This document shows, piece by piece, positions 4,765-9,327 of a stretch of 11,624 bases of DNA; within the stretch, counting starts at the first letter, position 1; each line of letters opens with the position of its first letter. This stretch comes from Promethearchaeota archaeon (GTDB taxonomy: Archaea; Asgardarchaeota; Lokiarchaeia; Sigyniarchaeales; SOKP01), in the NCBI GenBank assembly GCA_048941265.1, contig JBHLNT010000129.1, positions 1-11,624 of the forward strand, given 5' to 3'. The notes under the pieces were generated by a model. It worked only from the letters and a program-made list of their open reading frames with translations, did no database searches and was not told the origin of the DNA. The position numbers and the translations under genes were made by a program.

Positions 4765-4883
4765 ATATCTTTGGTTATTTTTACATTTCTTTTCATAACA
4801 ACTCATTCTTAATATTTTTGAGCAGTTATAATAGCTTTAAAAAAAAAGAAAATAAAAATTGTTCTTTTTTAATTGAAATGTCC

Positions 4884-5018
4884 TTATTGTTCCTTTAGGA
4901 ATCTCTTTTTAATCATTTCAAGCATCATAAAGCCAATATAAAATATAATCGCACTTAAGACAAGTATTAACCGAAAAGGTGGAAAAGATAAAACTGTTTC
5001 TAAGGTATCAATCGCCAT
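4884..5018 (-). CDS. Small single-pass membrane protein, 44 aa (MAIDTLETVLSFPPFRLILVLSAIIFYIGFMMLEMIKKRFLKEQ)
   Basis: Translated by hand. ATG 5018 is preceded by AAGGGA; one hydrophobic helix followed by KKR; TAA 4886-4884. Confidence 0.6.
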   Translation of the reverse strand: MAIDTLETVLSFPPFRLILVLSAIIFYIGFMMLEMIKKRFLKEQ

Positions 5019-5116
5019 ATTCCCTTAACTCAAATAACTACAAAATTAATACATCTATCATATTTTATTCTTATTTAAAACTATTTAGAGTAAAGGAAAA
5101 ATAAAAGAAGATAAAT

Positions 5117-5674
5117 TTAATAATCAAGAGAAAATGTTTTTTTAACCCAATTTTCAATATCTTCACGAGAATTAGATTGGGGCTGTGCGTCCTTATATAC
5201 GTCCCTTTTCCGCTCTTCCTCCATATTCTTCGAAAAATCACGTATTTCTGTTATGGTGCCATTTTCCACTTGAATCTCAACTACGATCTTAAACGCCATT
5301 GGCCGCTGAAACCCCATATGGACGTACATTTGTTCAATGAAGTCTTTTGCTAATAAAACTTTTCCTGTGAATTTAGTCTTAAAATTTAAATTTTGATAGC
5401 AATAGTCAAATAAAGAATTACCAGTTTCTTTGGCAGTTTAAGGCTCGATTCCATTAATCTTAGGAGGTTTTTTTGTATTTACTAGCATTCCATCTAAGAT
5501 TAATTGGTCGTTTTTGAAGCTATATTTCATGACATACCCTCTCCAGCTGGCCGTACATCTAAAATAAGGTTGTATTCCAAAAACTTCAGGAGTTGGCAAT
5601 TCATTCCCTTTAAGACCTACAAGGGAAAACTTCTCTTCGTTATAGATAAATTCATCCGGAATTTGTGCTGTCGT
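5117..5674 (-). pseudogene. Interrupted conserved hypothetical gene (TAQIPD...TAxWRGY...YVHMGFQRP type)
   Basis: ORFs 5438..5683 and 5117..5329 share a frame and are joined through one TAA (5440-5438) by stop-free sequence TAKETGNSLFDYCYQNLNFKTKFTGKVLLAKDFIEQ. The codon 6 nt after the GGAGGTG SD (5687-5681) is ACG (5674-5672) where ATG is expected. Confidence 0.8.
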
Positions 5675-5686
5675 TAACAACACCTC

Positions 5687-6976
5687 CTAATAGAGTTTTA
5701 AAATAATATCCATTATATTCTGAAATTTCTCTTCTGAGCCCCATATTACATAAATTACATTATCGATAGGGATGGCAACTTCTTTTATTGCAACAATCCA
5801 ATCAGGACCAATATTATTTGCTATCTTACTATCTTCTTTAAACTTGAGAAAAATGGATGCTCCAAGATATTCTTGGACCTTAGTATATTCGATTTTCATT
5901 TGTTCAAAACCGGGGATTACTCCCTCTTTTTTTAATTTCTCAATCTGCTCTTCAATTTTATTATATACAAGGTCTAACTTATCTCGAACTCTTAATTCAT
6001 CGATTATATCTTTATCATATTCAAAAAAAATAATCCCAAAATCCTTTTCAAGTCCCATTATGCCTAAAACATCAATATCAAAAACCTCTCTCCCTAATGA
6101 CTGAGAATCTTTATAGCGTTTAGAGATATCTTCCCATCCATTACTCACATATTCGTCAATTAATAGTCTGAAACTTTTAAGAATTTTTATTTCTTCTTCT
6201 TTTTCCTTAATTATTTTATTTACTAAATCTCCTATAGGCCTTGCAACATAAACCTGTGTGCCTCTTGGAGTTTCTAAAACCTTTTCAACCCAATTTTTTT
6301 TTAAAAGCCTTTCGATTATACGATATATTGTTGTCCTTTTTATAACTAATTCTTTATTCAAATTCCCTACTGTTTCTCCCTTTTCACCTTTATTCAGCAA
6401 GGCTAAGTATACCCTTGCCTCATCTGGGCTTAGTCCAAATTTCTGTAATCCCAAAGTTTTTAATATTTTAGAGGTATCAAATAAAAATTTAGGAGAAACA
6501 GTCTGTGCAAAGGGAGTTTCATCCCCTAATAAAGCATCGGGGGATATATAAGGTTCTTTTGTACTCATTAAGCTTAATGCTCTTGAACATAATGTTATTA
6601 CATCAATTAGCTGAACTAACCGATCCTCTTCATCCAAAGAAATTTTACAAATTATTTTTCTATCCTCATCTTTATACCCAACAATAAAATCTCTTCGATT
6701 TGAAGAAAAGGCAACTAGCTTGTCATAGGTGTTTTGAATTATTCTATAAATTATTCCCATTAGCTCTATAATTTTTACATTTTTAAATTCCTCAGAGCCC
6801 CATATTACAGTAATATTTTCTAAATCTCCGCTAATATCCCAATTAAATGTGTAATACACTAAAATACTCTTTATTTCTTCACCTTTCGCATTTTTAATTG
6901 ATTCTATAATTGCTAAGGAATTTATATTTAAATCAGAATCCATAAAAGAATCTGCAATTTTCTCGTAATTGGTCAT
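5687..6976 (-). CDS. Transcriptional regulator: N-terminal profilin-like domain + TrmB-type winged HTH + uncharacterised C-terminal domain
   Basis: ORF-track aa ~185-257 (LQKFGLSPDEARVYLALL...IKRTTIYRIIERLLKKNWVEK...VYVARP) match the TrmB N-terminal HTH pattern. Aa ~10-150 (SLAII...YTFNWDISGDL...LMGIIYRIIQNTYDKLVA...IVG) resemble Loki profilins as recalled. The start is probably ATG 6976; the ORF track gives 7003. Confidence 0.8.
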   Translation of the reverse strand: MTNYEKIADSFMDSDLNINSLAIIESIKNAKGEEIKSILVYYTFNWDISGDLENITVIWGSEEFKNVKIIELMGIIYRIIQNTYDKLVAFSSNRRDFIVGYKDEDRKIICKISLDEEDRLVQLIDVITLCSRALSLMSTKEPYISPDALLGDETPFAQTVSPKFLFDTSKILKTLGLQKFGLSPDEARVYLALLNKGEKGETVGNLNKELVIKRTTIYRIIERLLKKNWVEKVLETPRGTQVYVARPIGDLVNKIIKEKEEEIKILKSFRLLIDEYVSNGWEDISKRYKDSQSLGREVFDIDVLGIMGLEKDFGIIFFEYDKDIIDELRVRDKLDLVYNKIEEQIEKLKKEGVIPGFEQMKIEYTKVQEYLGASIFLKFKEDSKIANNIGPDWIVAIKEVAIPIDNVIYVIWGSEEKFQNIMDIILKLY

Positions 6977-7012
6977 ATAAAGAGAAATTCTATTACATTT
7001 CATGCTATCATT

Positions 7013-7037
7013 TCGTTATATAATTATAGTATAATTA
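7013..7037 (-). promoter_or_regulatory. Putative promoter of the profilin-like/HTH gene
   Basis: Minus-strand ATATAACGA (7021-7013), 37 nt upstream of ATG 6976, abutting the palindrome TAATTATA-G-TATAATTA (7021-7037). Confidence 0.35.
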
Positions 7038-7073
7038 AAAAAATAAAATAATTTACCCGCCAATTTTTAGACT

Positions 7074-7304
7074 TCAAAGCAGGCTGTTTTGTTTGTTTTT
7101 AAATTTTTCTTTTAAATCTTTCAGCAAATCTCTCATACAATCATTTTCTTTAGATCTTTGAATACGTGTGAAATCATTTAGCCTTGAAAAATGCTCCGAC
7201 TTGATATTATGCTCCTTTTTATTGTCATCGATTTCATCTGGGCCATCTGACAAAACGATGCAGGGAATTTCGTCTATTACTTTAATTTTTACCAATCTTC
7301 TCAC
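7074..7304 (-). CDS. Small hypothetical protein directly downstream of actin, with a C-terminal amphipathic helix
   Basis: 76-codon ORF starting 30 nt after the actin stop. GGTGA (7305-7301) lies 5 nt before TTG 7295, which suggests a 73-aa product starting MVKIKVIDEIP. The protein ends MRDLLKDLKEKFKNKQNSLL. Confidence 0.7.
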   Translation of the reverse strand: MRRLVKIKVIDEIPCIVLSDGPDEIDDNKKEHNIKSEHFSRLNDFTRIQRSKENDCMRDLLKDLKEKFKNKQNSLL

Positions 7305-7334
7305 CCATATTTGAAATTTAAACCAAATTGGATC

Positions 7335-8474
7335 TTAAAAGCACCGATGAATTACCTGCGGTCCCATTTCCTTATATTCACGCCGGGTTATCCACATCCT
7401 ATCAAATGTTTTCAGTGATGCCAATATCGAACCTCCAATCCACACGGAATACATTCTTTCGGGAGGGGATATGATCCTTACATCTACCGAATCAGGGATC
7501 TGTTCCTTGATTTCTTTAGCTAGGCGCTCTTTAAATCCCGGATACATGGTAGAGCCTCCCGAAAGAACGATATTTGAAAAAAGTTCTCTCCTTAAATCTA
7601 CATCGCACTCGTAGATCGCCCCCACTATTAGATCATCTAATGGATCTAATTCCTTTCCGACAGCCGACGGATTGAAGAAACATTCGGGAGCGAGAAACCT
7701 CTCAACACCTACATTAATAGTTTCTCCGTCAGGTAGCATGAAGCTCTTCTCCATTCCTGCCACTTTTTTGGAAAGCATTACCTCCTTTTCAGGATCTAAA
7801 GCGACATAGCAGAGCTTTTCTTTTACGTCCCTGACAATCTCCTTCTCGGCTGAAGTCATAAGGGTCACTCCTTTTTGCCTTAATAGTCTCTGTAAATAAT
7901 TTGTAACATCACGCCCGGCAAGATCGACTCTTTGGATTGCATGACTTAACGCAAATCCTTCAAAGATCGGTACAATATGAGACACGCCATCGCCAATGTC
8001 TATGACAGTCCCCGTTACGCGCCCTGAGGCATACAGCGATAAAACCGCCTGTGTTGCAACGTATAATGCAGGTACGTTGAAAGTTTCAAACATGATTTCG
8101 CCCATTCTCTCCCTATTTGATCGTGGATTTAATGGAGCCTCAGTCAAGAGTACCGGATGCTCTGAAGGATCCACTCTTAAGTCTGTGTAAAATGTATAAT
8201 GCCAGATTTTCTCCATAGCCGTCCAGTCATCAACAATTCCATGCTCAATCGGAAAATTAAATTTCATAATACCTGAGAGTTCCGCCGCCTCCTCACCTAT
8301 ATAGTATTCTCTTGTAAAATGTTTATATTCAGCAAGAATATTATGATACTTAGGAGTACCAATCATAGTAGGAAACACGGAACGAGGCTGGTCTTCGCCT
8401 GCATATCCGTTTTTTGAAATTCCCGTACCATTGTCCAAAACGATTGCCTTTGAAAATTGCCCATTATCTGCCAT
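7335..8474 (-). CDS. Asgard actin (Lokiactin-like, eukaryote-type actin homolog), 379 aa
   Basis: Actin hallmarks throughout: IVLDNGTGISKNG (phosphate 1), PIEHGIV, EHPVLLTEAPLNP, QAVLSLYASGR, DIGDGVSH (phosphate 2), DLAGRD, KEKLCYVALD, LPDG, NIVLSGGSTMYPG, PPERMYSVWIGGSILASL and C-terminal HRCF. GGAGG (8487-8483) lies 8 nt before ATG 8474, favouring it over GTG 8489. Confidence 0.97.
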   Translation of the reverse strand: MADNGQFSKAIVLDNGTGISKNGYAGEDQPRSVFPTMIGTPKYHNILAEYKHFTREYYIGEEAAELSGIMKFNFPIEHGIVDDWTAMEKIWHYTFYTDLRVDPSEHPVLLTEAPLNPRSNRERMGEIMFETFNVPALYVATQAVLSLYASGRVTGTVIDIGDGVSHIVPIFEGFALSHAIQRVDLAGRDVTNYLQRLLRQKGVTLMTSAEKEIVRDVKEKLCYVALDPEKEVMLSKKVAGMEKSFMLPDGETINVGVERFLAPECFFNPSAVGKELDPLDDLIVGAIYECDVDLRRELFSNIVLSGGSTMYPGFKERLAKEIKEQIPDSVDVRIISPPERMYSVWIGGSILASLKTFDRMWITRREYKEMGPQVIHRCF

Positions 8475-8676
8475 AATCTTTTCCTCCACTTTAATATCTT
8501 ATTTTATTTAGATTAATTTAAAGGAATCAAACATAGATTTTATGATAATGCTATTGTTTAGACTGAATTTACCTAAAATCATCTACCGCAATATATTATC
8601 TAAATCCAATCTTGATTCCGTTGTTTTTTACAATTGTTTTGTTAAAATATTAATGGTAAAACACCTATTTAAACTT

Positions 8677-8694
8677 TGTCACCATTCCGTGACA
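8677..8694. promoter_or_regulatory. Inverted repeat TGTCAC-N6-GTGACA upstream of actin, candidate operator
   Basis: Perfect 6-bp arms (8677-8682 and 8689-8694), followed by palindromes GTCATGAC (8695-8702) and ATGATCAT (8705-8712). Confidence 0.35.
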
Positions 8695-8937
8695 GTCATG
8701 ACACATGATCATAACATAAGATCCAACAATCGAGGAAAAGCTATGTATTGAGCAAAAGATTGTAAATTTAGAAATATAAATATCATATGAACTATAGAAA
8801 TATGTTATTCTTTAGAAAAAATGAATTAAATATATCTAAAAAAAAAAATAATTAAATAAAAAGATAAAACTACAAAAATCACTAAATTTATAACGTCAAA
8901 TGATTTAAATAGTCGGGATTCCTTATTATTTCTAGAT

Positions 8938-9327
8938 ATATCGAATTTAAATCCTAAAAAAATTTATGAAGAATACGAACAAGGTAGTTTGACAAAGTCA
9001 GCTACTTCCGAAAAGCTCATATTCATAATTGATAATCAAGATGATGAGGAGATTAGAATCGAAGCAATTGAACTACTTCAAAAGGTCGGCTTTACAAGCG
9101 AAAACGTATTCAAATGCATGTAATCTAATCTACTCTCAGATATGAATTATAGAATAAGGAAGTTGGCAGTTAAACAACTTTTAAATCTTTTTCCAGTCAA
9201 ATGCATAAAGTCGTTGAGATCAATCATTGAACAAGAAAATTCAATCAAGATGATTGCTTCATTTTTTGATATTTTGAAGCATCCGATTCGTTCCATAGCT
9301 TTTCGCAATAATTATTTTATTTTTTAA
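8938..9327 (+). pseudogene. Degraded HEAT-like helical domain gene, resembling the N-terminus of Lokiarchaeia LRR proteins
   Basis: The frame reads ISNLNPKKIYEEYEQGSLTKSATSEKLIFIIDNQDDEEIRIEAIELLQKVGFTSENVFKCM*SNLLSDMNYRIRKLAVKQLL... with one TAA at 9121-9123 and ATA at the expected start. HEAT-like patterns (DEEIRIEAIELL, SDMNYRIRKLAVKQL) occur on both sides of the stop. Confidence 0.7.

Follow-up and report, generated by a model that had tools for sequence, protein, structure and literature searches.

A profilin-TrmB fusion protein encoded next to a second actin gene: a candidate switch at an actin promoter in Lokiarchaeia

Can an actin feed back on the transcription of its own gene in a prokaryote? 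This question is raised by a contig of 11,624 nucleotides from a Promethearchaeota archaeon of the Lokiarchaeia (JBHLNT010000129.1 of assembly GCA_048941265.1, analysed over its whole length and hereafter called the window), in which an actin gene (here actin-2), a small gene and a gene for a protein joining a profilin domain to a TrmB-type winged helix-turn-helix (wHTH; the protein is hereafter called the regulator) follow each other, and in which a palindrome adjoins the TATA box read upstream of actin-2. A sequence-only reading of the window had proposed that the three genes and the palindrome form an actin-sensing transcriptional circuit. The comparative analysis presented here points to a switch at the actin-2 promoter, where the regulator would bind the palindrome and its profilin domain would make this binding respond to actin monomers, a reading to which we give about an even chance; that the protein is a local regulator of actin-2 is ranked likelier than that it senses actin. 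If true, the system would offer a direct way to test feedback of actin on transcription in a prokaryote, and it is small and well delimited, with one protein, one 18-bp site and one target gene. In animals, to our knowledge, the only system that couples actin to transcription is MRTF-SRF, which is unrelated. The literature searched gave no account of a fusion between profilin and a wHTH, nor of a second Lokiactin linked to a regulator; a 2023 BioEssays paper on Asgard profilin interactions may bear on the subject. In the accessible part of a 2026 study of Lokiarchaeum ossiferum, the candidate actin regulators named are limited to profilins, gelsolins, BAR proteins and one ARF GTPase (PMC13716822).

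Linkage of the regulator gene to a second actin gene

A search for homologues of the regulator revealed more than 138 proteins of 400-474 aa, and all those with a named source belong to Promethearchaeota or other Asgard archaea. The gene is found in 40 of the 121 sampled genomes of the family and in four of its 13 genera, and the cassette is optional within this one Lokiarchaeial family. An actin gene lies directly upstream of the regulator and in the same orientation in all 20 loci fetched around regulator matches and in 39 of 41 full-length loci taken from named records (L026-L066; the two sets overlap in genomes), the other two loci ending before the upstream DNA. Among the 40 genomes with the regulator, 37 have an intact adjoining actin, one contig ends 639 nt upstream and two carry a damaged actin-2 beside an intact regulator (L028 = G306:C205 and L037/L102 = G331:C46). 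One of the damaged genes shows two frameshifts together with an internal deletion, in a low-coverage assembly where errors are possible, and the other retains residues 194-379 only. The linkage holds in every assessable locus, down to a regulator identity of about 40%, and is effectively universal among the loci examined. That the actin gene, the small open reading frame (ORF) and the regulator lie together by coincidence, which the sequence-only reading had allowed for, is ruled out by these counts and is given practically no credence.

The arrangement itself was recovered as previously read, with three adjacent ORFs all on the minus strand and with gaps of 30 nt between the actin stop codon and the small ORF and, from the stop codon of the latter, of 70 nt to the regulator ATG at 7003 or 97 nt to the ATG at 6976. 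The decay suspected for the region was not seen in the actin gene, the small gene or the regulator. The G+C content is 0.42-0.44 in the actin gene vs 0.25-0.32 around it, which is consistent with the gene being highly conserved and the genome as a whole AT-rich.

When comparing the linked actin with the other actins of the family it was found to be 84% identical to the canonical Lokiactin, which is also present in genomes lacking the regulator. In each of the five genomes with the regulator that were tested, a canonical Lokiactin is present in addition to the linked actin-2, the canonical copy of the source genome being partial and located on contig C89. In a phylogenetic tree the 17 linked and the 12 canonical actins fall on either side of a single branch (support 87/34), with end branches of at most 0.02 for canonical Lokiactins vs 0.03-0.16 for actin-2, and four genomes have identical canonical Lokiactin proteins. 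Invariant columns number 208 of 376 among actin-2 sequences vs 352 of 372 among canonical sequences, and four of the seven fixed differences between the two groups fall at positions 40-48, which we take to be the D-loop by standard actin numbering. Actin-2 is a faster-evolving, cassette-specific Lokiactin paralogue and not the main cytoskeletal actin. Since the linked actin is this paralogue, the circuit would govern a spare actin, and the earlier idea of a circuit over cytoskeletal gene expression in general has to be narrowed to one gene. Part of the Lokiarchaeia retains, on this reading, a second, rapidly evolving and separately controlled actin isoform, which bears on the origin of isoform diversity.

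The likely start of actin-2 in the window is the ATG at 8474 (8472-8474), preceded by GGAGG, and the canonical Lokiactin genes inspected also start with ATG. In 16 of 37 loci the apparent start of actin-2 is ATT, situated 7-8 nt past a strong Shine-Dalgarno sequence of the GAGGTGG type (L030, L031, L034-L036, L040-L045, L048, L052, L053, L059 and L062). No in-frame ATG, GTG or TTG occurs between the upstream stop codon and the ATT in 13 of these 16 loci, and the next canonical start downstream is at codon 7 or later in all of them. A TTG takes the place of the ATT in four loci. A weak start codon may add a further layer of control to actin-2. A separate observation is that of two tandem actin genes, 82% and 80% identical to that of the window, at L105 (G276:C48:2620-6487), in a genome where no regulator and no palindrome were detected.

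Domains of the regulator and the palindrome at the actin-2 promoter

To describe the N-terminal domain of the regulator (N-domain) a profile was built from 18 N-domains of different loci and compared with the sequences in the PDB, giving matches to Loki profilin-1 (5yed, E 4e-14), Loki profilin-2 (5zzb, E 8e-13), Odin profilin (5zza, E 4e-10) and Thor profilin (7pbh, E 9e-8). With a single regulator sequence as query the best matches were again Loki profilins, at E 0.09-0.17. The source genome also encodes a stand-alone profilin (contig C320, E 3e-60 to 5yed), to which the N-domain was aligned by hhalign with a probability of 98.3% and E 2.5e-14. A model of the regulator was calculated with AlphaFold 2 from a 41-sequence alignment (mean pLDDT 71.9, mostly 83-91 in the N-domain) and showed helices at residues 13-23, 58-67 and 125-146 and strands at 27-37 and 43-51 with five more in 78-121, together forming a seven-stranded sheet with the terminal helices packed on. 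When the PDB was searched with Foldseek the five top matches were Loki and Odin profilins (E 5e-7 to 4e-6, TM 0.65-0.78), the roadblock structure 9jq8 ranking only 28th. The domain also has the multi-strand insert typical of profilins, whose additional strands stand in for half of the central helix of roadblock domains, and such an insert, according to the accessible text of PMC10933270, sets profilins apart from roadblock and longin domains and touches actin in 5yee. The best-conserved stretch common to the N-domain and the solved profilins, GIKYxIxxNTxER, seems from the alignments to lie within this actin-contacting part. The N-terminus of the regulator is a genuine Asgard-type profilin domain, as the sequence-only reading had it, homologous to and of the same fold as the known Asgard profilins (5YED/5YEE, 5ZZB, 5ZZA, 7PBH). 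These stand alone, whereas here the domain occupies the first 150 residues of a DNA-binding protein of 438 aa, for which we infer binding to actin.

Two more profilin-domain proteins are encoded in the same genome, of 201 aa (C212, L003:1336-1941) and 257 aa (C282, L002:1162-1935), in each of which the domain is followed by a conserved K-x-P-Y motif; both also have helical tails. A type of about 205 aa is present in most of the 121 family genomes and clusters with profilin-like domains fused to GTPases.

The TrmB-type wHTH, the second half of the proposed fusion, was recovered with PF01978 and lies internally in the regulator, not at the N-terminus as in the TrmB family. A VIA-align comparison of the wHTH-plus-tail model gave Z 10-11 to wHTH regulators including TrmBL2 (5bpd), in rows that cover the wHTH only. 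In the AlphaFold 2 model the wHTH is followed by a helix at 257-287, of which the part from residue 274 has a pLDDT below 50, and a Pfam search of residues 272-438 matched no family, the sugar-binding C-terminal domain of TrmB included. The same tail is present in paralogues of 283-305 aa without a profilin domain. One such paralogue is found in the locus of the closest relative (L026:5893-8476), between the 70-aa ORF and a 56-aa ORF, in a stretch of about 2.2 kb that the window does not have at the corresponding place (~4765-5116). Over its full length the wHTH-plus-tail part is structurally closest to the archaeal chromatin protein TrmBL2 (5box/5bpd), in a weak match (Foldseek E 1.4e-3 over ~290 columns, TM about 0.33; E 2.8e-4 for the whole regulator model). 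TrmBL2 is described in the accessible text of PMC4877046 as coating DNA without sequence specificity, in contrast to the specific and conserved palindrome found here. In the TrmB family a coiled-coil helix after the wHTH serves dimerisation, and the regulator would probably dimerise through the wHTH and the long helix. CodY is comparable in that a helix connects its sensor, of profilin-like fold (GAF), with a wHTH (Foldseek match E 1.5e-3), although it has another domain order and belongs to another family; CodY senses branched-chain amino acids and GTP.

When analysing the region upstream of actin-2 the inverted repeat noted earlier proved to be real and specific, with the form TGTCAC-N6-GTGACA. 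It is the sole match in the window allowing one mismatch and was matched in none of 200 shuffles, and the exact pattern occurs once in the 5,011,874-bp assembly, where 0.11 copies are expected from base composition. Its proximal arm falls at the expected position of the transcription factor B recognition element (BRE), next to the TATA box. Of 37 loci, 23 have the full 6+6 palindrome ahead of the linked actin, and in 35 a half-site, GTGACA or TGTCAC, lies 2-6 nt upstream of TTTA[AT]ATA; one subgroup of loci has TGTCGC-N6-GCGACA, with both arms changed symmetrically, together with a GTGACA half-site, and some loci carry three half-sites. A TrmB-type operator candidate at the actin promoter, as previously suggested, is hence conserved across loci.

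A search of the 121 genomes for the exact palindrome revealed it in 26, once in each, and a reversed control pattern in none. The regulator is present in 23 of these 26 genomes, in which a comparison of coordinates places the site on the contig of the regulator and 1.2-3.3 kb away from it, and a 24th site adjoins a TATA box at the end of a contig. The palindrome was absent from the canonical Lokiactin promoters of both regulator-less genomes (0 of 23 usable ones) and regulator-bearing genomes (0 of 4). Because there is one palindrome per genome, it appears to be a dedicated local switch site for actin-2 and not part of a regulon. No operator-like repeat was identified between the small gene and the regulator (7004-7073), a stretch that holds the T7 tract (7037-7043) and an AT-rich TATA-like sequence. 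Other inverted repeats at 8400-9000 and 6950-7400 are long-range, AT-rich and imperfect and were given no weight.

The distance from the promoter to the actin start codon is ~200 nt or ~65 nt depending on the locus, about half of the loci having the long leader and the rest the short one. In the window the leader (8475-8640) is predicted to form a long hairpin of -29.1 kcal/mol (z -2.6), a stability that 3 of 200 shuffles reached.

The likeness to TrmB and TrmBL1 (Tgr) of the Thermococcales lies in the PF01978 wHTH, in the long helix modelled after it and in the presence of a C-terminal domain, and extends to the operator. The TGM operator of TrmBL1, given as TATCAC-N5-GTGATA in the accessible text of PMC4706686, has the same TCAC...GTGA core, is palindromic and is placed at the promoter. 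The system described here differs in its N6 spacer, its TGTCAC half-site, its single site per genome vs a regulon, the lack of a match to the sugar-binding TrmB C-domain and the added profilin domain.

The proposed switch and its alternatives

In the proposed switch the regulator, probably dimeric via the wHTH and long helix, would bind the single palindrome abutting BRE and TATA and would thereby set how strongly actin-2 is transcribed, and with it the small gene in loci that have one. The profilin domain would bind monomeric actin, be it actin-2, canonical Lokiactin or both, and actin occupancy would alter either DNA binding or the recruitment of transcription factor B (TFB) and the TATA-binding protein (TBP), so that the promoter reads the monomer pool. 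The logic would be like that of MRTF-SRF in animals, in that a regulator with an actin-monomer-binding module reads the G-actin pool. MRTF-SRF uses RPEL motifs and a MADS box, and MRTF is a cofactor controlled through nuclear import; the parts are unrelated and one polypeptide would here bind both actin and DNA, which makes the comparison an analogy only. Repression by occlusion of the BRE seems the simplest sign of regulation, with activation as a possibility. In the accessible text of PMC4706686, TrmBL1 is described as activating from sites upstream of BRE/TATA and repressing from sites downstream, and TrmB as repressing by overlap with BRE/TATA.

Several observations weigh against this reading, some concerning the profilin-like domain and others the palindrome. 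The N-domain of the window gave no match to the Pfam Profilin model (PF00235) at E up to 1, a model that passes its threshold on the 201-aa paralogue of the same genome (26.3 bits vs 25). When 1.84 billion representative proteins were searched in full with HMMER, only 136 had this profilin-like domain (E up to 0.001), among which it is also fused to Ras GTPases, leucine-rich repeats (LRR), SIR2 and leucine carboxyl methyltransferase (LCM), the fusion proteins being P0172, P0179, P0206, P0223, P0203, P0205, P0267, P0158 and P0161. The domain may therefore be a general interaction module, and the C-terminal domain of the regulator could be the actual sensor, as in TrmB and TrmBL1. In P0256 and P0266 several wHTH domains precede a C-terminal profilin-like domain, the opposite of the order in the regulator. 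In a tree of the domain the regulator N-domains form their own clade (support 95/92) apart from the stand-alone profilins, and the fusions with wHTH first form a separate clade near the stand-alone profilins, which indicates that the latter fusions arose independently. The pairing of profilin with a DNA-binding domain recurs, yet the domain is a promiscuous module, and this cuts both ways.

These data bear directly on an alternative in which the regulator binds the palindrome and the profilin-like domain binds another ligand, such as a phospholipid, the small protein of the cassette or a GTPase, or aids oligomerisation, with the C-domain as the effector part. The versatility shown by the range of fusions and the miss by the Pfam model speak in its favour, as do the core fold common to profilin, roadblock and longin domains, which in the accessible text of PMC10933270 serves many partners, and the paralogues that lack the profilin domain and retain the wHTH and the same C-terminal domain. 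It would leave the strict pairing with an actin gene unexplained, however, and the closest solved relatives of the domain, in both sequence and fold, are profilins crystallised on actin (5yee, 5zzb, 5zza), with the shared GIKYxIxxNTxER stretch apparently in the part that contacts actin. We regard this alternative as unlikely, though worth keeping in mind.

On the side of the palindrome, two of the exact copies (G270 and G323) occur in genomes where no regulator was detected and are not promoter-like, and 17 of the 40 regulator genomes have variants instead of the exact palindrome. No covariation was seen between the recognition-helix variants KRTT/KRTH and the half-site, which together with the TrmBL2-like similarity and the presence of a wHTH-plus-tail paralogue within a few kb in several loci would fit a palindrome bound by some other factor, for example such a neighbouring profilin-less TrmB paralogue, and a regulator acting elsewhere, for example as a general chromatin protein. 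This is considered improbable, as the window and many other loci have the palindrome without such a paralogue nearby and as the palindrome tracks the profilin-fused regulator across the 121 genomes, with 23 of 26 sites on its contig.

A further point listed on the opposing side comes from the Lokiactin co-immunoprecipitation (co-IP) table in the accessible part of the L. ossiferum study, where one of two TrmBL1-annotated proteins appears, below the quality filter (PMC13716822). An orthologue of the regulator was not identified in that organism, and the row carries little weight either way.

The order of the genes also resembles type II partition loci of the ParMRC kind, with a cis site in the promoter, an actin-like gene and the gene of a DNA-binding adaptor, as in parC-parM-parR. 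In such an Asgard counterpart of ParMRC, a DNA-bound dimeric profilin adaptor would hold actin-2 at the palindrome, either as monomers or by the barbed ends of filaments, and would position or move the DNA, autoregulation being secondary as it is for ParR on parC, and a eukaryote-type actin and profilin would then be tied directly to DNA positioning plus autoregulation. Such a coupling would agree with the binding of profilin to the barbed-end face of actin (5yee), which the adaptor could touch, with the resemblance of the tail to TrmBL2 as a protein that coats DNA, with the three half-sites of some loci and with a separate, fast-evolving actin whose fixed differences cluster at the presumed D-loop. 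Against this, the palindrome is single in each genome and directly joined to a TATA box, and in place of the iterated centromere (iteron array) of ParMRC at most three half-sites in a few loci; the cassette lies on large chromosomal contigs of up to 1.28 Mb that are not plasmid-like, and two genomes have a degraded actin-2 beside an intact regulator. The actin is moreover eukaryote-like, and the adaptor has a wHTH vs the ribbon-helix-helix of ParMRC. We consider actin-DNA coupling of this kind to have little probability.

Transcription units, small genes and other features of the window

The features of the window are collected in Table 1. The proposed switch at the actin-2 promoter concerns a transcription unit made up of actin-2, together with the small gene in loci that have it, and the regulator appears to stand outside this unit. 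Oligo-T tracts terminate transcription in archaea, and a run of at least five T (mostly T7-T12) is found between the upstream gene and the start of the regulator in nearly all of the 27 loci printed. Such a tract speaks against simple co-transcription of actin, small gene and regulator and makes a single operon doubtful. Because the tract precedes the regulator, the latter is probably expressed separately, presumably from a weak promoter of its own, or by read-through of the terminator. A scan of the window for bacterial-type promoters and terminators was uninformative.

Table 1. Coordinates of the genes, protein domains and putative regulatory elements in the window
Feature	Position	Strand	Remarks
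Actin-2	7335-8474	minus	379 aa; ORF listed as 7335-8489; Pfam Actin E 2e-129
Small gene	7074-7304	minus	76-aa ORF
Regulator (profilin-TrmB)	5687-7003	minus	438 aa; alternative ATG start at 6976
Profilin domain	6563-6976	minus	regulator residues about 10-147
TrmB-type wHTH	6242-6448	minus	residues 186-254; PF01978 54.5 bits vs cut-off 25.6
Long helix, linker and C-terminal alpha/beta domain	5690-6235	minus	helix at residues 257-287; low-confidence linker; domain at about 320-438
81-aa ORF	5438-5683	minus	conserved; starts 3 nt past the regulator stop
70-aa ORF	5117-5329	minus	conserved; always alongside the 81-aa ORF
Candidate operator palindrome TGTCAC-N6-GTGACA	8677-8694	strand-neutral	TGTCACCATTCCGTGACA
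TATA box	8666-8673	minus	TTTAAATA; read from sequence; 3 nt downstream of the palindrome
Inferred 5' leader of actin-2 mRNA	8475-8640	minus	~165 nt; deduced from the TATA position
Oligo-T tract (T7)	7037-7043	minus	candidate archaeal terminator; between small gene and regulator

The small gene between actin-2 and the regulator belongs to a family found in 18 of 38 loci and is real but optional; in loci without it the gap between actin-2 and the regulator is -16 to 67 nt. In the window its likely start is the TTG at 7295 chosen by gene callers, three codons into the ORF, which gives a protein of 73 aa. The small proteins share 21-38% identity outside the closest relative; their motifs are IKxIDGIPCI, close to the N-terminus, and the C-terminal LxELKxKF. 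A word-index search revealed 16 close homologues in the protein collection. The earlier description of this protein as WH2-like is not supported. In addition to the limited occurrence of the gene, no Pfam family passed the threshold, a match to WH2 (PF02205) was lacking even at E up to 0.1, nothing related turned up in the protein atlas and no look-alike was found among the WH2-like microproteins compared. The WH2 consensus is an amphipathic helix followed by an LKKV-type motif, and the sole resemblance to it is the C-terminal LxELKxKF, located inside a predicted continuous basic stretch. In the 11 canonical Lokiactin loci checked, the actin gene is not followed by a conserved small ORF.

In L. 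ossiferum the Lokiactin is GNAMCCOK_03343 and the next gene, GNAMCCOK_03344, encodes a hypothetical protein of 6.04 kDa that has abundance rank 125 of 3,061 expressed proteins and appears in the Lokiactin co-IP, below the quality filter; the second gene after Lokiactin encodes a hypothetical protein of abundance rank 1317 (accessible part of PMC13716822). Orthology of these neighbours to the small protein or the regulator could not be established and nothing was drawn from them.

Directly after the regulator the 81-aa ORF is found in 14 of the 41 full-length loci (L026-L066) at 55-80% identity, and likewise among the 20 loci fetched around regulator matches, and the 70-aa ORF in the same loci at 54-83% identity. 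Neither matches a Pfam family, and both may belong to the transcription unit of the regulator. An Rfam scan of the window matched no family. A gene for an HD-domain protein (Pfam HD E 9e-19) is located at 915-1508 of the window, and in related loci an HD-domain gene is a frequent neighbour of the cassette, often convergent and situated directly past the regulator.

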